Origin: Candidatus Woesearchaeota archaeon
Lineage (GTDB): Archaea; Nanobdellota; Nanobdellia; Woesearchaeales; DSVV01
DNA: 10,437 bases
Reading direction: 5' to 3'
NCBI GenBank assembly: GCA_043813525.1
Contig: JBDRKY010000082.1
Span: 1 to 10,437 of the forward strand
Shown: positions 1,698 through 9,526 of the stretch, piece after piece
How the letters are laid out: each line of letters opens with the position of its first letter
Position numbering within the stretch: the first letter of the stretch is position 1
Made by a program: the position numbers and the translations under genes
Notes under the pieces: model-generated
Seen by the model: only the letters and a program-made list of their open reading frames with translations
The model's database searches: none
Told to the model about the DNA's origin: nothing

Positions 1698-1844
1698 TTA
1701 TCTTGCATTGACTTTTGTCAATGAAGACCTTGGCTTAAATAAAATCTTACTACCGCAATAAGGGCATCTAATCTTTTTTCTAAGATAATCCTGTGAAACA
1801 ACTTTATTGCATTCAAAACATTTGTATTCAGTCATTTTCTTCAT
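1698..1844 (-). CDS. rpoP: DNA-directed RNA polymerase subunit P (Rpo12/RpoP, zinc ribbon), 48 aa. It is not in the supplied ORF track because it is under 60 aa.
   Basis: Manual translation of the minus strand from ATG 1844 gives MKKMTEYKCFECNKVVSQDYLRKKIRCPYCGSKILFKPRSSLTKVNAR*. This matches the RpoP consensus Y.C..C.......L.....RCPYCG.KIL.K.R, with two CxxC pairs. It sits between L37ae and Pcc1, exactly as in the archaeal superoperon. It overlaps the 3' end of the L37ae ORF by 17 nt. The stop is at 1698-1700. Confidence 0.7.
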   Translation of the reverse strand: MKKMTEYKCFECNKVVSQDYLRKKIRCPYCGSKILFKPRSSLTKVNAR

Positions 1845-2211
1845 ATAAATCATTCAATGATTTTTTTTTAGGTTCTTCTGATTTTTTCTCAGAATACCTA
1901 AAAGTCTCTTCATCTGATTCTTCAGATTCATCCTCTTGCTCATCTAATTCTTCTACTGATTCTTCTTTTGATTCTGATTCAACAGCAGATCTTTTCTTCT
2001 TTGCTAAAGTATAAGCCTTGCCAGTAAACTTATTTTCACATTTACTGCATTGCCATATTCCTACAGCAATCCTCTTAACTTTAATCTGGTTACAAAAAGG
2101 ACATTTATGAAGTTTTCTCTGTTCTTTCTCAATCTCACCAAACCTAAGTTTAGGTGTCCTACCATATCTTGTTCCAAACCTTTTTATTGAACCTGTATTT
2201 ATTTTAGCCAT
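1828..2211 (-). CDS. rpl37ae: Ribosomal protein eL43 (L37ae), 127 aa, with an unusual roughly 55-aa acidic/Ser-rich C-terminal extension
   Basis: MAKINTGSIKRFGTRYGRTPKLRF....HKCPFCNQIKVKRIAVGIWQCSKCENKFTGKAYT is the canonical L37ae C4 zinc ribbon. The start is ATG 2211, with a TTAAATAAATA box about 20 nt upstream and no SD, so it is probably leaderless. The tail SAVESESKEESVEELDEQEDESEESDEE...LYEEND has no counterpart in typical eL43 proteins of about 90 aa. Confidence 0.85.
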   Translation of the reverse strand: MAKINTGSIKRFGTRYGRTPKLRFGEIEKEQRKLHKCPFCNQIKVKRIAVGIWQCSKCENKFTGKAYTLAKKKRSAVESESKEESVEELDEQEDESEESDEETFRYSEKKSEEPKKKSLNDLYEEND

Positions 2212-2243
2212 ATTTAATCACTTTGTATTTATTTAATCGAAAT

Positions 2244-2432
2244 GGGGCTGCCCAGACTTTCATAAAGTGATAAATTGTAAGCTGTATATAGTAGAATTCC
2301 TACCACTTACCACTAATTACTTACCACTCTTTTTGAACTGGGGTCCGCTGGTTTTTTATAAGGTTTGCTTAAACAATCTCAAGTAAAACCTGCCCAAACC
2401 AGCAAGGATAGACCAAACTACCCCACAGCCCC
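2244..2432. ncRNA. Candidate structured non-coding element or foreign GC-rich insertion of about 190 nt; class unknown
   Basis: Local GC is far above the window background. There is no ORF of 60 aa or more. Terminal GGGGCTG (2244-2250) is the exact reverse complement of CAGCCCC (2426-2432). Internal complementary pairs include GCTGG 2347-2351 with CCAGC 2399-2403, and GGGG 2340-2343 with CCCC 2421-2424. It also contains the TACCACT heptamer array at 2301-2328. Strand is undetermined. Confidence 0.25.
2301..2328. repeat. Tandem heptamer array TACCACT-TACCACT-AATTACT-TACCACT
   Basis: The array is read directly from the sequence: three perfect copies and one variant copy of a 7-mer in direct tandem, lying inside the GC-rich non-coding island. 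Confidence 0.6.
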
Positions 2433-2523
2433 AAATAAGCTGAACCATTTTAAGTATTATTGATTAAATAAGAGATTTAGAATTGCTTTATAAATGTTTT
2501 GGATGAAGCATATGAAATATGGT

Positions 2524-3417
2524 TTATTTCGTTAAAATAACAATTTCATCATCTATAAGCAAAGTATGCTCATGCTGAGACACCATACCATCACTAACTT
2601 CAGGCAATGGCGAATATTCATGTAAATTCTTATTCAATATGAGCTGCCTCAAAGCAAGCTTAACCCTGTTTTCAGGGAATTTCTTAATAAGATCCCTTGT
2701 TGAAAAGGGAAGCTTATTAAAACCTTTTATTTCCTCAAAAACTTTTCTGGCAAACATATCTCTTATGGGCTTATCATTAACCTGCATAAAAATATTAGGA
2801 TGGCTGCCTTCCTTGATCCTGCCGCCGCCTGTGGTTGCAAACGGCTCAATAGCAACAATCATGCCTTTCTCAAGCTTTGTTGTATCACCATTATTATAAT
2901 TAGGGATTGTTGGAGCAGTATGAACCATAAACAGATCTAAACCATGACCTGAAAGATTTCTTATAGGATTAAACCCATAACCTGTGATTGTCTCACTTAT
3001 AACTTTACCAATTTCACCAAGTGTCACACCTGCTTTTATAATCTTCAAAGCATTATCTACTGCAACCCTGCTTGCCTCAACCAGCTTATCATATTTTCCA
3101 GACAGATCAAAGGTATAAGCAGTATCACCTATCGCACCATTATAACACACGCCAATATCTACTTTAAGCAGTTGCTCTTTCAATATTGTCTGATCATCAG
3201 GAGATGGAGTATAATGAGCTGCAAAATTATCTGAACTAAGATTGACAGGAAATCCAGGCTGCGCTCCAAAAGCACGTATCTTATCCTCAATCTGTTCTGC
3301 CACATCTAACAATTTAGCACCTGGCTTGATTATTGTCTTAGAAAATTCCCTAACATCAGAAGCAATCTTACCTGCTTTTATCCAATCTGCATATTTTTTT
3401 TCAAGTTCTTTGTTCAT
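2524..3417 (-). CDS. map: Methionine aminopeptidase, type 2 (archaeal MAP2), about 297 aa from ATG 3417 (MNKELEKKY...)
   Basis: The protein aligns along its whole length with archaeal MAP2, including FPVNLS.N..AAHYTP, KVD.GV...G.I.DTA.T, NLSGH, and AIEPFAT.G.G plus QHEHT metal-binding motifs. A GGTG SD lies 6 nt upstream of ATG 3417. The longer ORF-track start at 3468 would overlap the upstream gene. Confidence 0.9.
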   Translation of the reverse strand: MNKELEKKYADWIKAGKIASDVREFSKTIIKPGAKLLDVAEQIEDKIRAFGAQPGFPVNLSSDNFAAHYTPSPDDQTILKEQLLKVDIGVCYNGAIGDTAYTFDLSGKYDKLVEASRVAVDNALKIIKAGVTLGEIGKVISETITGYGFNPIRNLSGHGLDLFMVHTAPTIPNYNNGDTTKLEKGMIVAIEPFATTGGGRIKEGSHPNIFMQVNDKPIRDMFARKVFEEIKGFNKLPFSTRDLIKKFPENRVKLALRQLILNKNLHEYSPLPEVSDGMVSQHEHTLLIDDEIVILTK

Positions 3418-3436
3418 GTATAACACCTTTATTAAA

Positions 3437-5332
3437 TCATTTCTTCTCCGCAAGATCAATAACACCATCTAATTTTTTTATCTCATTTATAATATCTTTC
3501 AATGCAATCGTATTATTCATCTCAACACTCAATGTGGTAACAACACTATCTTTCTTAGGTTTGGTGGTCACATTTTTAATATTAAGCCCGTAAGTAGCAA
3601 TAAGATTGAGAACATTTGCAAGAATACCTATCTTATCTTCAAGACTCAGATTTAATTTAATCACTGGAGATGTTCTCTGCTCTATCCATAAGACAGGCAC
3701 TTCTTTGTTCTTATCAAGAGAATATATATTTGGACAGTCTTTCTTATGCACTGTGATTTTTTTATCTTTTGTGTAAAAACCAATGATAGGATCCAATAGT
3801 TTAGGATTGCAGCATTTAGATATCTTTAACGGCGCTTTCTTGCCTACAATCTGGATACGCCTTGATAAATCAACAGGTAATTCTGATAAATCTTTCTTCT
3901 GCTGATCTATATCCATATTCAATATAGATTTTATCTTGCTTCTTGCCTTGTTGGTCTTTACAAATTTTAACCATTGACGGGAAGGCGTTGCATTCTTATT
4001 CACAATAATCTCTATGATATCTCCAGAATCAACAGCAGTCTCCAGAGGGACAATCTTATTATTGACAAGAGCCTTAGAACAATGATTGCCAATATTTGTA
4101 TGAACCATGTAAGCAAAATCAACAGGAGTAGAACCACCAGGCAAAGTAATAGGATCACCTTTTGGGGTAAAAACAACAATCTCATCCTCGAAAAGATCAA
4201 TCTTCAAAGTTTCAATGAATTCTGAAGAATTGCTTGCTAAATTTCTCCATTCCAACATCTGTTTCAGCCATGATATCTTCTTATCAAACAGTTTATCACG
4301 TTCAGTGCCATGATAACGCCAATGCGCTGCAACACCATCCTCAGCAATATGATGCATCTGCTCTGTCCTTATCTGAAATTCCAAAATCTTGCCTGAATCA
4401 GTAATCACAGTAGTATGCAAACTCTGATAACCATTTGATTTTGGCACAGAGATATAATCCTTGAACCTATGTGGAATTGGCTTATTATGGTCATGTATCA
4501 GACCTAAAGCAGCATAACAATCAGGAATAGTCTTTGTGATTATCCTAATAGCAATAAGATCATAAATCTCATTAAAGCCAACATTCTTCTTTTTCATCTT
4601 TTTATAGATACTATAGAAGTATTTTGCACGGCCAGACACATCAGCAGATATATTTTTATCATTAAGGCTTTTTTTTATTGATCTAATAAGATCTTGAGTA
4701 TGTTTTTCACGCTCATTTCTCTTTTCAGCAATCTTGCTTGCTAAAAACCTATAAACATCAGGCTCAATATACCTAAGGGATAAATCTTCCAACTCACCTT
4801 TTACCCTCCACATGCCAAGCTTATGAGCGATAGGAGCATAAATCTCTAAAGTTTCCTTTGACACGCGTTTCTGCTTATCCTTAAGCAATACTTTCAAAGT
4901 TCTCATGTTATGAAGCCTGTCAGCAAGCTTGATCAGCATAACCCTTATATCCCTTGCTGTTGCGATGAGAATCTTCCTTAAATTTTCTGAAGTATAATCT
5001 TCTTTATTATCAAAATGCACCTTGTCAATCTTTGTGACACCTTCAACAAGACCTGCTATCTCACTGCCAAAAATACTGTTGATCTTTTCAATGCTGATAG
5101 AAGTGTCCTCAACAATGTCATGAAGCAAAGCAGCACATATTGTAGCTGAATCTGCTTTCAGATCAAGAAGGATATTGGCAACTTCAATAGGATGTGAAAA
5201 ATACTCTTCACCACCAACTCTCTTCTGGCCTTTGTGAGCTTTTTCTGCCAAGACATATGCTTTCTTGATTAAAGCGACATCTGCTTTTGGATTATATCTT
5301 AATATTGTTTTAATAAGTTCAGATAATCTCAT
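3437..5332 (-). CDS. Long bifunctional RelA/SpoT homologue (Rel-type (p)ppGpp synthetase/hydrolase) of about 631 aa, with HD hydrolase, synthetase, TGS, CC and ACT domains
   Basis: The N-terminal HD domain carries HP...LLHDIVEDT. The synthetase domain has GRAKYFYSIYKKMKKK, EIYDLIAIRII, YQSLHTTV and EFQIRTEQMHHIAE. The TGS region reads VFTPKGD...LPGGSTPVDFAY.VHT.IG, there is a KCCNP Cys motif, and the C-terminus is ACT-like. The probable start is ATG 5332 (MRLSELIKT...); the listed 5338 codon is TTG. The TGA stop at 3437-3439 lies 17 nt upstream of the MAP2 ATG. Confidence 0.9.
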   Translation of the reverse strand: MRLSELIKTILRYNPKADVALIKKAYVLAEKAHKGQKRVGGEEYFSHPIEVANILLDLKADSATICAALLHDIVEDTSISIEKINSIFGSEIAGLVEGVTKIDKVHFDNKEDYTSENLRKILIATARDIRVMLIKLADRLHNMRTLKVLLKDKQKRVSKETLEIYAPIAHKLGMWRVKGELEDLSLRYIEPDVYRFLASKIAEKRNEREKHTQDLIRSIKKSLNDKNISADVSGRAKYFYSIYKKMKKKNVGFNEIYDLIAIRIITKTIPDCYAALGLIHDHNKPIPHRFKDYISVPKSNGYQSLHTTVITDSGKILEFQIRTEQMHHIAEDGVAAHWRYHGTERDKLFDKKISWLKQMLEWRNLASNSSEFIETLKIDLFEDEIVVFTPKGDPITLPGGSTPVDFAYMVHTNIGNHCSKALVNNKIVPLETAVDSGDIIEIIVNKNATPSRQWLKFVKTNKARSKIKSILNMDIDQQKKDLSELPVDLSRRIQIVGKKAPLKISKCCNPKLLDPIIGFYTKDKKITVHKKDCPNIYSLDKNKEVPVLWIEQRTSPVIKLNLSLEDKIGILANVLNLIATYGLNIKNVTTKPKKDSVVTTLSVEMNNTIALKDIINEIKKLDGVIDLAEKK

Positions 5333-5338
5333 CAACAA

Positions 5339-5469
5339 TAAGTATAGATAAGAGATTTATAAATCTTTTCTCCGAAAAATTTATAAATGAATGTTGACAG
5401 GATAAAATCAGTAATTAATCAACCATTAAAATTAAATAAGCTTAAATTGCAAAAAAAGAGGTGTTTAGT
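5339..5469. promoter_or_regulatory. Divergent intergenic or promoter region with two copies of the palindromic TATA-like box ATTTATAAAT (5355-5364, extended to GATTTATAAATC at 5354-5365, and 5379-5388)
   Basis: The region lies between the minus-strand RSH gene (start 5332) and plus-strand gene A (start 5470). The first box is 23-32 nt upstream of the RSH ATG, consistent with a leaderless mRNA. The second box could serve the plus-strand operon. The SD AGAGGTG sits at 5457-5463. Confidence 0.35.
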
Positions 5470-6048
5470 ATGAGATTTTCAAAGAATGCATCGCTGAACC
5501 TATCAGTAAATGCGATAGTTGTGTTTGTACTTGCGTTTTCTATGCTTGGTGTAGGATTGTATGTCACAAACCTTATCAGAGAGAATGTCGGTAGCGGAAT
5601 CACATCTGTTGTAAATATCCAAGACCTTAAAAGCCCGCCTTCTGCAGAAGACCCAATCACTGTTTCCAGAGAAATCACCTTGAAAAAAGGCAAAGAGATT
5701 AAGATTGATATTGGTTATTATAACAAAAACACAGAAGAAGCAACAAATGCAAAGATTGGAATTGGAGATTGTATAAAACCTGATGGCGAACAACTGATAC
5801 TTGAAGGTGGTGGTACCTCAGATGATGCATTGTTAGTAGTTTCTCCATTTGCAAAATCAGTAGGAGCAAGCGAAGGAAAAGGATACAAAGTAAAAATTGT
5901 AGATAACTCTAAAAATACAGGTGATCCATTGACAACAGGAAGTTATGTATGTACAATGATTGTATTTGACCCTGCATTAGGAACAGGATGGGGATCATAT
6001 GATGAACCATATGAATCAAAACAATTCTTCCTGAATCTAGTATCATAA
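5470..6048 (+). CDS. Secreted or surface protein A (192 aa) with a pilin-like (class III / type IV prepilin-like) N-terminus; function unknown
   Basis: The SD AGAGGTG is followed by 6 nt and then ATG 5470; the listed GTG 5461 lies inside the SD. The N-terminus MRFSKNA-SLNLSVNAIVVFVLAFSMLGVGLYV is short and basic and then runs into a hydrophobic helix of about 24 aa. It is followed by a Gly/Thr/Ser-rich, probably beta-rich domain with two Cys. No recognisable catalytic motif is present. Confidence 0.5.
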   Translation: MRFSKNASLNLSVNAIVVFVLAFSMLGVGLYVTNLIRENVGSGITSVVNIQDLKSPPSAEDPITVSREITLKKGKEIKIDIGYYNKNTEEATNAKIGIGDCIKPDGEQLILEGGGTSDDALLVVSPFAKSVGASEGKGYKVKIVDNSKNTGDPLTTGSYVCTMIVFDPALGTGWGSYDEPYESKQFFLNLVS

Positions 6049-6076
6049 ATTAATTTATCAAAAAGAGGTGATGATT

Positions 6077-6328
6077 ATGGCAAAAACAAAAAAATCAAAT
6101 GAAAGCAAAGCAGGAAAGAAAAAACTAACTGAAGACCAGGAATTTGAGATTATGAAATTAGTATTAGACAAATTTCTGTGGCTGGGATTTGCAATAATGG
6201 GTGTTGGATTCTTTGTTGCAGTATCTGGCGGATCTTTGTTCAACGCTGTATCTTACTTAGTAGCAGGAGCAGTTGTGCTAGTATTGTTTATGATCCTGAT
6301 TGTGAGAGAATACGAAATAATAAAATAG
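6077..6328 (+). CDS. Small two-TM membrane protein B (83 aa) with a Lys-rich cytoplasmic N-terminus
   Basis: It uses the same SD geometry: AGAGGTG at 6064-6070, then 6 nt, then ATG 6077. It has two hydrophobic helices, FLWLGFAIMGVGFFVAVSGG and AVSYLVAGAVVLVLFMILIV, and shares the GVGFF motif with genes A and D. It lies 28 nt downstream of gene A. Confidence 0.5.
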   Translation: MAKTKKSNESKAGKKKLTEDQEFEIMKLVLDKFLWLGFAIMGVGFFVAVSGGSLFNAVSYLVAGAVVLVLFMILIVREYEIIK

Positions 6329-6364
6329 GTGCTTTAGTGTTAGGGTTAGGTGCTAAGAGTTAAT

Positions 6365-6390
6365 AGTTTGTACTCAAACTTTTTGTTCTT
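6365..6390 (+). terminator. Hairpin plus T-tract, AGTTTG-TACT-CAAACT-TTTTGTTCTT, probably a terminator after genes A and B
   Basis: A perfect 6-bp stem with a 4-nt loop is immediately followed by a T-rich run. It is preceded by two copies of TAGGTGCT (6326-6333 and 6347-6354). Confidence 0.35.
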
Positions 6391-6435
6391 AACATCCAGC
6401 ATCTAAAAGCTAACACCTGATTAAAGGTGATAATA

Positions 6436-7233
6436 GTGAAGAAAAAAGTTTTTATATTTTTTAGTATCATAATTCTTTGTATGGCTCTACTGATAATTGC
6501 AGGTTGCGGAGGAGAAAAGGAGTGCAGGGAAAACTCAGACTGTTCTGCAGGCAGCTGCTTTGATGTGAAATGTGAAGATAATAAATGTATAAAGACAGCA
6601 CAGCCAGACTGCTGCGGCAACCTGATGTGCGAATCTGAAGCTGGAGAAAATTCATGCAATTGCAAAAGTGACTGCAAAAAACCAAAATGTGAAGGTAAAT
6701 TTGTAGTAAAAGAAAGGGGAAGCAAAAAATATTATGGAGAATATCTTGAATATATGTGCAAAGATGATAAATGCATGCTCACATTCGATGAAAAATCAGT
6801 CAAGAAAATTCCACTCCTTAGTGAAAAAACAATAAATAATGTTAATCTGGAATTAGGTGTCACATTCAACAAGCCATTTGATATGACTAACGATAAAGTG
6901 ATGATTGCATTAACACTTAAAGATTATGATCAAAATAAGGCAAAGATGCCATTCACTGTCAAAAGCATCAAGATAATGGATGGTGACCTGCTCTATGGAC
7001 AGACTAACACAAATAAAGAGCTTGTACAGATTGGCGCTGGGATAAAAGAATCTGTTCCTTTAACTTTAGATCCAGAATCAAAAGAAGAAGAAAAATCATT
7101 GACATTGAAAGTTGATTATGAAATGACAAAGATTAATTCCAAAGGAGAAGAAGAGCTAATAAGAGATAGTTTTGTTGAAAAGTTCTCACAAAAAATATTT
7201 TTGATTGTGACAGGTGAGGCTGATTTAGAGTGA
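6436..7233 (+). CDS. Cysteine-rich secreted lipoprotein C (about 265 aa from GTG 6436; the ORF track starts at GTG 6427)
   Basis: The SD AAGGTG at 6424-6429 is followed by 6 nt and then GTG 6436, giving MKKKVFIFFSIIILCMALLIIAGC. That is a basic n-region, a hydrophobic h-region and a lipobox-like IAGC. The following approximately 65 aa contain about 16 Cys (CGGEKECRENSDCSAGSC...CCGNLMCESEAG.NSCNCKSDCKKPKCEGK). After that comes a beta-rich domain of about 170 aa with no recognisable motif. Confidence 0.5.
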   Translation: MKKKVFIFFSIIILCMALLIIAGCGGEKECRENSDCSAGSCFDVKCEDNKCIKTAQPDCCGNLMCESEAGENSCNCKSDCKKPKCEGKFVVKERGSKKYYGEYLEYMCKDDKCMLTFDEKSVKKIPLLSEKTINNVNLELGVTFNKPFDMTNDKVMIALTLKDYDQNKAKMPFTVKSIKIMDGDLLYGQTNTNKELVQIGAGIKESVPLTLDPESKEEEKSLTLKVDYEMTKINSKGEEELIRDSFVEKFSQKIFLIVTGEADLE

Positions 7234-7868
7234 GAAAGGGAAAAAAGAACAGGATAAGAAAAAATAAAAAAGGATTTGAACTAAGCATCAATTTCATAGT
7301 TATGATGATACTTGCTTTAGTAACATTAGGTGTTGGCTTCTTCTTTGCAAAGAACATATTCAGCCATACTATAGATATAGGGGAGCAGCTTGATGCACAG
7401 ACAAAGACACAGATAGAATCTAAATTAAGGGATCCAGCATCTTTAGTAGCAGTTGGCCTTAACAGAAAGGTAATAACTAGAGGAGATCATGATACATTTG
7501 GTATTGGTGTTGCAAACAGGAACAGTAAAAAAGGATATTTCTATCTCGAAGTTTCATGCAAACTTGGTAATTTTAAAAATAAAGAAGGTGTAAATGAAGA
7601 TCTTCCTGTCTTATGCCAAGAAGAAGAGACATGCTGTAGCAAATGGATACAGGCAGAAAAAAAAGGAGAAAACTTATTCAGGATTGATGTAGGTGAACTT
7701 AATCCTACTGGATTTGATGTTGGAACATTATTCTTTAACATAGACAAGAAAGCCAAACCAGGATTGTATGTTTATGATGTACAAGCAAAGAGAACTGATG
7801 CAAAGATGGGTGAACAGGGAAAACAAAGCTATGATTCTGTAAAGAAGATATATGTTGAAGTTCCTTAA
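7230..7868 (+). CDS. Class III signal peptide (archaeal type IV pilin-like) protein D, 212 aa
   Basis: The GTG start overlaps the gene C stop as GTGA (7230-7233), which implies translational coupling. The N-terminus MRKGKKNRIRKNKKG|FELSINFIVMMILALVTLGVGFFFA has the KKG-then-hydrophobic-helix architecture of archaeal prepilin peptidase substrates. The extracellular domain has 4 Cys. An oligo-T tract follows the stop. Confidence 0.5.
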   Translation: MRKGKKNRIRKNKKGFELSINFIVMMILALVTLGVGFFFAKNIFSHTIDIGEQLDAQTKTQIESKLRDPASLVAVGLNRKVITRGDHDTFGIGVANRNSKKGYFYLEVSCKLGNFKNKEGVNEDLPVLCQEEETCCSKWIQAEKKGENLFRIDVGELNPTGFDVGTLFFNIDKKAKPGLYVYDVQAKRTDAKMGEQGKQSYDSVKKIYVEVP

Positions 7869-8457: not shown

Positions 8458-8628
8458 GTATGTAAAAAGTCTCCTAATAAGGAATATTATTACAGCCAGT
8501 TTTCATCATGGAAATCTTACAATTAAAATCATAAAGGAGCTCCATACCTTAATGTCTCACGACCTGTATTGTGATAAAAACAAACATAAGGCAGCAATAA
8601 TATTCTAAAAAGGAGACTTTTTACATAC
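8458..8628. mobile_element. MITE-like non-autonomous element, 171 bp, with 18-bp perfect terminal inverted repeats flanked by an 8-bp direct repeat (target-site duplication GATTATCT)
   Basis: GTATGTAAAAAGTCTCCT at 8458-8475 is the exact reverse complement of AGGAGACTTTTTACATAC at 8611-8628. The inverted repeat continues imperfectly for about another 20 bp (..GAATATTATTaCaGCC against ..AATATTATTgCtGCC). GATTATCT occurs in direct orientation at 8450-8457 and 8629-8636. There is a central GGAGCTCC palindrome at 8536-8543. The element has no ORF of its own. The right end lies inside the last 8 codons of tpiA. Confidence 0.55.
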
Positions 8629-9390
8629 GATTATCTCAATGAACTGAGTAGGATCCAAACCAGCACCACCTACAAGAAAACCATTGATATTCTTCTGCTT
8701 AATCAGTTCTGATGCATTATTTGGCTTTACACTGCCGCCATAAAGAATCCTTAACTGCATAGCTGTTGTCTGAGAATACATGTCTGTGAGCTGTTCACGT
8801 ATGAATGCATGAACCTCTTCTGCCTGTTCTGGTGTCGCTGTCTTGCCTGTGCCAATTGCCCAGACCGGTTCATATGCAATGACTAAAGCCTTGACCTGAT
8901 TTTCAGAAACATTCTTTAAACATGCTTTCAATTGTGTCAAAAGAACATCATTTGTCTTTTTCTTTTTCCTCTCTTCTTCTGTCTCACCAATGCAAAGTAT
9001 TGGATTAAAACCATGATTAAAAGCAGAGATTACTTTTTTATTTATCAGCTGATTCGGTTCTTTGAATATGTGCCGCCTCTCTGAATGACCTAAAATTACA
9101 TATTCACATAACTCCTTTAACATAATAGGAGATATTTCTCCAGTAAACGCTCCGCTGTCTTCACAATACATGTTCTGTGCACCTAATTTTATCTTTTCAT
9201 TCTTTATCTTTGATATTTCACTTAATGAGATGAATGATGGACAGATTAAAATTTCGTTTCCATCATTATCACCACTAAAAAAACCATCTTTAACTAATTC
9301 ATCAATTTTACCATTAAATTCATTAAAAAAATCAACAGCTTCCTTCACAGTCTTGTTCATCTTCCAGTTTGCCGCAATCAGATTATTCAT
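8605..9390 (-). CDS. tpiA: Triosephosphate isomerase, bacterial-type, about 261 aa from ATG 9390 (MNNLIAANWKMN...)
   Basis: The protein carries AANWKMN, GAQN, ILGHSERR, LCIGE, IAYEPVWAIGTGKTAT and YGGSV..N motifs. These are those of the bacterial/eukaryotic TIM type, not the short archaeal type with INYK and about 220 aa. GGTG lies 5 nt before ATG 9390. The ORF-track start at 9465 adds 25 non-homologous residues. The last 7 codons and the TAG stop (8605-8607) lie within the MITE-like element. Confidence 0.9.
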   Translation of the reverse strand: MNNLIAANWKMNKTVKEAVDFFNEFNGKIDELVKDGFFSGDNDGNEILICPSFISLSEISKIKNEKIKLGAQNMYCEDSGAFTGEISPIMLKELCEYVILGHSERRHIFKEPNQLINKKVISAFNHGFNPILCIGETEEERKKKKTNDVLLTQLKACLKNVSENQVKALVIAYEPVWAIGTGKTATPEQAEEVHAFIREQLTDMYSQTTAMQLRILYGGSVKPNNASELIKQKNINGFLVGGAGLDPTQFIEIIVCKKSPF

Positions 9391-9526
9391 ATTATCACCC
9401 TCATTAGTTTTAAATATAATATATTTGCTGAACATATTATGATATAAATAATTAATGGAAAACAAAATTTTTATATACTAAAGGAATATGCAATATATTA
9501 AACATATAAACATTTGAGGTGTAAAA
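9391..9526. promoter_or_regulatory. Divergent promoter region between tpiA (-) and the stomatin gene (+)
   Basis: The intergenic stretch is AT-rich with TATA-like TTTTATATACT at 9467-9477 and ATATTATATTTA on the minus strand about 30 nt upstream of the tpiA start. The SD GAGGTG at 9516-9521 sits 5 nt before ATG 9527. Confidence 0.3.

Follow-up and report, generated by a model that had tools for sequence, protein, structure and literature searches.

The stretch of DNA analyzed here (hereafter called the window) makes up one complete contig of 10,437 bp, which belongs to a metagenome-assembled genome (MAG) of Woesearchaeota in NCBI, as identified by a search with ribosomal protein L37ae. The methionine aminopeptidase (Map) encoded in the window also points to an affiliation with Woesearchaeota, a lineage of the DPANN archaea, its best relatives being 71-75% identical in amino acid sequence. 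On the minus strand, the gene for this M24 methionine aminopeptidase (map, 2524-3468) and that for L37ae (rpl37ae, 1828-2211) flank a segment in which an initial annotation of the window had noticed a GC-rich, non-coding island with complementary ends. This segment, positions 2243-2432 on the minus strand, is very probably a functional gene for tRNA-Pro(UGG) that is composed of three exons and two protein-spliced introns of bulge-helix-bulge (BHB) type, namely at the positions 37/38 and 59/60 of the tRNA. The strand, the tRNA identity, and the introns had not been recognized in the initial annotation. As an archaeal tRNA gene with two introns, the locus is ordinary and of a kind that is already known.

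No open reading frame (ORF) of 60 amino acids or longer was found within 2212-2523, and both neighboring genes were confirmed, in agreement with the ORF-free segment described between map and rpl37ae. The elevated GC content was also reproduced for the segment as a whole (41.6% vs 33.2% for the window), but the segment is not a uniform island. Indeed, the 200-nt composition windows over it have a GC content of only 0.345-0.35, and three GC-rich blocks (57%, 57%, and 71% GC) alternate with two AT-rich blocks (27.5% and 30.7% GC).

In the proposed gene (2243..2432, minus strand), the first nucleotide of the tRNA is at 2432 and the discriminator A73 is at 2243, giving a precursor body of 190 nt; the 3'-terminal CCA is not encoded. 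Exon 1 (2393..2432; nt 1-37; 57.5% GC) reads from 2432 to 2393 GGGGCUG-UG-GGGU-AGUUUGGUCUA-UCCU-U-GCUGG-UUUGGG, which contains the 5' strand of the acceptor stem (GGGGCUG), the D-arm having an 11-nt D-loop with G18G19, the 5' strand of the anticodon stem (GCUGG), and U32, U33, U34, G35, G36, and G37; its first 29 nt are the same in all of the relatives described below. Exon 2 (2332..2352; nt 38-59) reads from 2352 to 2332 A-CCAGC-GGAC-CCCAG-UUCAAA and thus provides A38, the 3' strand of the anticodon stem (CCAGC), a 4-nt variable loop (GGAC), the 5' strand of the T-stem (CCCAG), and U54, U55, C56, A57, A58, and A59. Exon 3 (2243..2256; nt 60-73; 71% GC), which is also the same in all relatives, reads from 2256 to 2243 U-CUGGG-CAGCCCC-A, i.e., U60, the 3' strands of the T-stem (CUGGG) and of the acceptor stem (CAGCCCC), and A73.

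When 2353-2392 and 2257-2331 were removed in silico, the resulting 75-nt sequence was called tRNA-Pro(tgg) with a full cloverleaf by ARAGORN: a 7-bp acceptor stem, a 5-bp anticodon stem with the loop UUUGGGA, and a 5-bp T-stem with the loop UUCAAAU. Direct reading of the spliced sequence confirmed the presence of all the conserved nucleotides, namely U8, A14, G15:C48, G18G19, U33, G37, G53:C61, U54, U55, C56, and A58. Archaeal prolyl-tRNA synthetase recognizes G35, G36, G37, G1:C72, and A73, and these identity elements are all present as well. Once only intron 2 (2257-2331) was deleted, furthermore, ARAGORN detected intron 1 (2353-2392) unaided, while placing the junction 1 nt further 3'. Brute-force double deletion over wide ranges was also tried and yielded 5,376 products, 1,622 of which were recognized as a tRNA of some kind; this procedure was too permissive and was discarded for the single specific prediction.

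The cloverleaf assigns a role to several of the complementary blocks that had been listed from the raw sequence. The terminal inverted repeat, GGGGCTG (2244-2250) and CAGCCCC (2426-2432), is exact as claimed, extends to 8 nt (2243-2250 and 2426-2433), and corresponds to the acceptor stem. An inverted repeat of 7 nt is expected about once by chance in 190 nt, and what makes this one significant is the full cloverleaf together with the orthologues rather than the repeat alone. Also complementary are GCTGG (2347-2351) and CCAGC (2399-2403), which extend to GCTGGTTT and AAACCAGC and form the anticodon stem. The supposed pairing of GGGG (2340-2343) with CCCC (2421-2424), on the other hand, proved to be spurious: in the tRNA, these bases correspond to C48-C51 and G9-G12, and 2338-2342 instead pairs with 2251-2255 as the T-stem. 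The repeated CTGCCCA (2248-2254 and 2390-2396) does exist and even extends to a 9/10 match, but it has no structural role; as estimated from pair counts, chance alone would give about 0.7 matches this good in 216 nt.

Both of the AT-rich blocks have properties of archaeal tRNA introns. The BHB motif is defined as a 4-bp central helix between two 3-nt bulges on opposite strands with the splice sites placed in the bulges (PMC4090602, PMC5829648). Both introns show this motif, intron 1 in a relaxed form, and the excision restores a canonical tRNA at known insertion positions. Intron 2 (2257..2331, minus strand; 75 nt; 30.7% GC) interrupts the T-loop at 59/60 and would form the motif designated hBHBh', in which the T-stem serves as h, U54-A57 (UUCA, 2337-2334) pairs with UGAA (2262-2259) as the central helix (H), and a 12-bp helix serves as h'. 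Its two bulges read AA|A (2333-2331) and AG|U (2258-2256), and both of the predicted cuts fall between nucleotides 2 and 3 of the bulge in the unconstrained minimum free energy (MFE) structure. Intron 1 (2353..2392, minus strand; 40 nt; 27.5% GC) occupies the canonical 37/38 site, and its H is made of U32-G35 (2398-2395) and UAAA (2358-2355), followed by h' of AGGUUU and AAACCU; the 3' bulge is AA|A (2354-2352), and a 3x2 internal loop contains the 5' splice site, GG|C (2394-2392). Canonical introns place the anticodon nucleotides 34-35 in the central helix, with which the geometry of intron 1 agrees (PMC4090602). Each of the exon-intron boundaries can therefore form a BHB motif in the predicted folds, one that is nearly strict at intron 2 and relaxed at intron 1.

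The folding of the precursor is consistent with these assignments. The 190-nt minus-strand precursor has a predicted folding energy of -74.9 kcal/mol (z = -5.71), and none of 200 shuffled sequences was as stable; the unconstrained MFE structure includes the acceptor, anticodon, and T stems as well as the 3-4-3 BHB at intron 2. An all-pairs scan of the precursor for the BHB geometry recovered both of the predicted cut pairs, with intron 1 as the pair (40,80), together with three weaker pairs. Among 100,000 shuffled introns, moreover, an in-register H with h' of at least 4 bp was obtained in only 0.2% for intron 2 and 0.6% for intron 1. We also noticed a sequence of 10 nt, ACTTACCACT, that occurs twice without any mismatch within intron 2, at 2305-2314 and 2319-2328 on the plus strand, 14 nt apart; this is weakly unusual in that 21 of 200 window shuffles reached two matches with at most one mismatch.

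The initial annotation had suggested a structured RNA such as signal recognition particle (SRP) RNA, RNase P RNA, or an intron-containing tRNA. The last of these options was right, as the spliced cloverleaf tells, and the first two are not supported. That the segment represents another structured non-coding RNA, either SRP RNA, RNase P RNA, or a novel small RNA (sRNA), might be supported by the strong folds predicted for either strand (z = -5.7 for the minus and -3.5 for the plus strand). Nonetheless, no Rfam family was found at the gathering threshold or at E<=10 beyond two noise matches, and each of the GC-rich blocks is explained as a tRNA exon. Archaeal SRP RNA and RNase P RNA are longer than 190 nt, for which the segment is too short. 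Some archaeal tRNA-Trp introns contain a nested box C/D sRNA, and such a nested sRNA was considered here; direct reading found neither a C box (RUGAUGA/UGAUGA) nor a D box (CUGA) in the two introns, making this option unlikely. Altogether, we consider another class of non-coding RNA hardly conceivable at this locus.

Orthologues of the tRNA-Pro(UGG) gene provide further evidence. Relatives were reached through Map (locus L001), L37ae (L047-L052), and a DNA pattern of exon 1 (L042-L045); some of the loci were thus found by protein similarity of Map or L37ae, i.e., independently of the tRNA sequence. The 12 Woesearchaeota loci represent seven distinct tRNA-Pro(UGG) sequences, all of which are located directly upstream of rpl37ae. 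Two of the loci, L048 and L051, have the same gene order as the window (RelA/SpoT - map - tRNA-Pro - L37ae - Pcc1), and that in L051 extends to prefoldin. At L001, about 2.2 kb with several small ORFs (4928-7243) is inserted between map and tRNA-Pro, which directly neighbor each other in the window as well as in L048 and L051. The exons of the relatives are 95-96% identical to those in the window, and a comparison of five distinct spliced sequences showed variation in the stems at positions 27:43 and 28:42 only. Changes at both of these positions, to which exon 2 contributes one strand, are compensatory (G-C to U-A and C-G to U-A, respectively) and occur in the helix spanning intron 1. In the covariation analysis, 95% of the cells were paired, compared with 34-62% in slid controls.

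The orthologues (L001, L042-L045, and L047-L052) share with the window the gene position, the exons, an intron in the anticodon loop, and an upstream box described below, but differ in the introns themselves. Their anticodon-loop introns are 29 or 32 nt at the same site and are about 50% identical to the 40-nt intron of the window, which is near noise; the introns of the relatives are unrelated in sequence to intron 1. The T-loop is uninterrupted in all of the seven distinct sequences (TTC[AG]AATCTGGG), and this contiguous T-loop fixes the junction of intron 2 at 59/60 without any folding. Since the 75-nt intron is absent from all of the seven, a gain in the lineage of the window is the simplest explanation, and intron 2 is likely to be lineage-specific.

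The same distribution needs to be considered in terms of a pseudogene; namely, the 75 nt in the T-loop would be an unspliceable insertion, and another copy of the gene would supply tRNA-Pro(UGG). Confinement of the insert to the window among the seven distinct relative sequences could be understood in this way, as could its length exceeding those of the other 59/60 introns in the fetched loci. Its in-register 3-4-3 BHB with a 12-bp h' argues against an unspliceable insert, given that just 0.2% of the shuffles reach h' of even 4 bp. The exons also exhibit no decay, retaining the 95-96% identity to the orthologues with all stem differences being compensatory, and introns at 59/60 are demonstrably spliceable in DPANN archaea (PMC3239211). 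We thus regard a pseudogene as improbable.

Several features nonetheless count against the assignment as a functional two-intron tRNA-Pro(UGG) gene. The D-stem consists of two G-C pairs, a G10-U25 pair, and a U13-U22 mismatch, and no clear oligo-T terminator was found downstream of the gene, where only TTT is present. The BHB of intron 1 is relaxed, with H composed of three A-U pairs and one G-U pair and with the 5' site in the 3x2 internal loop, and RNAfold favors a pairing there that deviates slightly from this one. In the BHB of intron 2, a single additional A is left unpaired across from the 5' bulge, and the intron (75 nt) is far longer than the other 59/60 introns in the fetched loci (13-30 nt). 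Finally, the raw sequence is not scored by the Rfam tRNA model, although this last point is uninformative for the reason given below.

A foreign insertion resembling a miniature inverted-repeat transposable element (MITE) had been raised as well, and either the whole 190-nt segment or the 75-nt core might be such a mobile element with terminal inverted repeats. The segment indeed has exact terminal inverted repeats of 7-8 nt, and the 75-nt core is lineage-specific with the internal 10-nt duplication. The terminal repeats are, however, the acceptor stem of the tRNA and are kept in every orthologue, and no target-site duplication was evident at either boundary when the junction sequences were read. 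Further copies of intron 1 or 2 were not found by blastn-short in 371 kb (the window and 52 related loci), by a pattern search in the window, or by a scan of a collection of viral contigs. Any movement of intron 2 as a BHB intron would, besides, be intron transposition instead. The MITE-like insertion is accordingly an explanation to which we give almost no credence.

The tRNA-Pro(UGG) gene escapes the standard tools. ARAGORN found nothing in the raw window with the intron mode on or off, and Rfam cmscan of the whole window gave no tRNA match at the gathering threshold. At E<=10 on 2150-2550, Rfam yielded only noise, namely hveRNA (16.5 bits) and Entero_OriR (13.7 bits). The gene is missed by the standard tRNA and Rfam scans because the two AT-rich introns break it into three GC-rich exons. 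The absence of an Rfam match had been listed among the observations that would refute the structured RNA; cmscan indeed returned none, yet such a test would wrongly dismiss a real tRNA. The Rfam tRNA model (RF00005) at gathering also misses the orthologues with a single intron of 29-32 nt in L045, L047, L048, and L051, which ARAGORN calls cleanly, and the missing Rfam match therefore carries no weight against an intron-containing tRNA. In other words, Rfam cmscan cannot exclude intron-containing archaeal tRNAs. A scan for sigma-70 promoters and terminators is likewise inapplicable to archaea, and its one terminator-like match (2406-2389) is the junction between the anticodon stem and intron 1.

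Upstream of the tRNA gene, we found candidates for promoter elements. On the minus strand, TTTATAAA within a box of AACATTTATAAA is present at 2487-2494, i.e., 55-62 nt upstream of the mature 5' end, and an alignment of the upstream regions from six genomes shows this distal box (-55 to -62) to be invariant. As a candidate TATA element of the archaeal type, it could serve either the tRNA or a unit of the tRNA and rpl37ae. In the relatives, a proximal TTTATAAA box is also located at about -25 to -18, and it is degenerate in the window, where ATAATACTTAAAAT (2447-2460, minus strand) is its putative counterpart. The spacing of the proximal box resembles the leaderless tRNA transcription that has reportedly been described for Nanoarchaeum equitans.

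By the established archaeal pathway, transcription from an upstream TATA-type promoter would produce a precursor with a length of at least about 190 nt. Each bulge would then be cut between its nucleotides 2 and 3 by EndA, the tRNA splicing endonuclease, with four cuts in total, and an RtcB-type ligase would join the three exons. Trimming of the 5' and 3' ends, post-transcriptional addition of CCA, and base modification would complete the maturation, with G37 presumably being methylated. As modeled, U54-A57 would be locked in the central helix of the BHB until intron 2 is excised, blocking the elbow between the T-loop and D-loop. The T-loop could not form before the removal of intron 2, and splicing would hence be obligatory for the function of the tRNA. 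No gene for EndA was found within the 10,437-bp contig.

As to the origin of intron 2, one possible but doubtful scenario is that it was acquired recently as a BHB intron that had transposed out of a different tRNA gene in this genome. If so, the locus would be a snapshot of ongoing intron gain in Woesearchaeota, and the large-scale intron transposition of Thermoproteales would extend to DPANN archaea. In this scenario, 59/60 would be a hot spot because the universal UUCA of the T-loop supplies half of the central helix; any insert ending in UGAA-NN would automatically create a cleavable BHB.

Introns in the T-loop at 59/60 were also found in other tRNA genes of the fetched DPANN loci, namely L018, L002, L025, and L034. 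A tRNA-Ser(GCU) gene in L018 (5243-5387) is interrupted by two introns, one of 31 nt at 37/38 and one of 30 nt at 59/60, and its orthologue in L002 (6227-6403) has a 29-nt intron at 59/60 together with further inserts. A tRNA-Phe-like gene in L025 (5113-5218, minus strand) has a 21-nt insert at 59/60, and a tRNA-Arg(UCU) gene in L034 of Micrarchaeota (7551-7637) has one of 13 nt. All of these four were undetected by ARAGORN when unspliced. A correct call of those in L018, L025, and L034 required the removal of the T-loop insert, and in L018 that of the 37/38 intron as well, and the tRNA-Ser(GCU) gene in L002, which carries the further inserts, was still miscalled as tRNA-Ala after the removal of its T-loop insert. 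Matches of the 59/60 scan in bacterial loci were spurious and were rejected. The true 59/60 introns all end in a 4-mer that can pair with U54-A57 (UGAA, CGAA, or GGAA, with G-U pairs allowed) followed by 2 nt. Judging from these sequences, insertion at 59/60 seems to recur among Woesearchaeota and Micrarchaeota.

Disruption of tRNA genes in these loci is not confined to the 59/60 site. In L018, an initiator-like tRNA-Met(CAU) gene (5010-5148) just downstream of map contains two introns, of which the one at 37/38 measures 47 nt and the one at 53/54 measures 25 nt. Its orthologue in L002 (about 5249-5420) has different inserts in the D-loop and anticodon-stem regions without any intron in the T-arm, and it was miscalled by ARAGORN as tRNA-Ser with a 96-nt intron. 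The intron content thus differs in close relatives, as seen in tRNA-Pro (one vs two introns) and in the sets of initiator tRNA-Met and tRNA-Ser between L002 and L018, which indicates active intron turnover in the tRNA genes of DPANN archaea as far as the compared genes tell.

The site 59/60 is listed among the non-canonical intron positions in archaeal tRNAs, for which multi-intron genes have been reviewed and intron lengths from 11 to 129 nt reported (PMC4090602, PMC4033280). In ARMAN-2, the 59/60 intron of pre-tRNA-Cys was cleaved in vitro by an epsilon2 endonuclease, and tRNA-Pro(GGG) has introns at 53/54 and 59/60 (PMC3239211). The present gene resembles these in belonging to the same superphylum, in the use of the 59/60 T-loop site, and in T-loop nucleotides forming half of the central helix of the BHB; tRNA-Pro(GGG) of ARMAN-2 also has the strict hBHBh' motif. 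Unlike in ARMAN-2, the intron here is 75 nt instead of 13 nt, the 59/60 intron is combined with a canonical 37/38 intron instead of one at 53/54, and the lineage is Woesearchaeota. ARMAN-2, furthermore, uses an endonuclease of the epsilon2 type. DPANN EndAs with the L3 loop (L3-loop alpha4) accompany increased tRNA disruption, and Kaneta et al. included a Woesearchaeota genome in their analysis (PMC5829648).

A closer counterpart in terms of the isoacceptor is tRNA-Pro(UGG) of Pyrobaculum islandicum, which has three introns at 25/26, 37/38, and 56/57 (PMC4090602, PMC4033280). The same isoacceptor is thus disrupted by several BHB introns in one gene, one of them in the T-arm, and in Thermoproteales as well, standard tRNA finders miss the multi-intron genes and intron gain is lineage-specific. 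The differences are that Thermoproteales are Crenarchaeota of the TACK group rather than DPANN archaea, that the intron positions do not coincide and the introns number three there and two here, and that the Thermoproteales are GC-rich hyperthermophiles with an (alpha-beta)2 EndA. Intron transposition has been demonstrated there through the similarity between introns.

The known mechanism of splicing is unchanged by our finding, and its main value lies in annotation. Although tRNA-Pro(UGG), the decoder of the proline codons CCA and CCG, is essential, it is invisible to ARAGORN and Rfam cmscan in the contig, as are at least five more split tRNAs among the related DPANN loci. Because default finders miss split tRNAs, estimates of completeness for DPANN MAGs and inferences on their codon usage would under-count tRNAs. 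The association of DPANN lineages with highly disrupted tRNA genes is already known, and the locus adds to it a case in Woesearchaeota.

Some of the neighboring genes in the window deserve mention as well. The L37ae protein (1828-2211, minus strand) has 127 amino acids with an acidic C-terminal tail rich in E, D, and S, which continues for about 45 residues past the Pfam domain. Such tails are also present in the closest relatives (126-176 amino acids), while other Woesearchaeota L37ae proteins mostly have about 100 amino acids. For the methionine aminopeptidase (2524-3468), the nearest relatives outside DPANN in the genome collection are from MAGs of Chlamydiae and Verrucomicrobia (41-47% identity), hinting at a bacterial-type enzyme or an inter-domain transfer. 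Adjoining map is a gene for a full-length bacterial-type RelA/SpoT homologue (RSH; 3437-5338, minus strand) with HD, RelA_SpoT, TGS, and ACT domains in 632-633 amino acids, and this homologue is kept in several Woesearchaeota, i.e., L001 (1957-3855), L002 (1953-3854), L018 (1871-3772), and L051. To our knowledge, long RSH enzymes are unusual in archaea. Three successive ORFs on the plus strand (5461-6048, 6427-7233, and 7230-7868; 195, 268, and 212 amino acids, respectively) have no Pfam match. An ORF for triosephosphate isomerase on the minus strand (8605-9465) encodes 286 amino acids and hence exceeds the short archaeal form of this enzyme.

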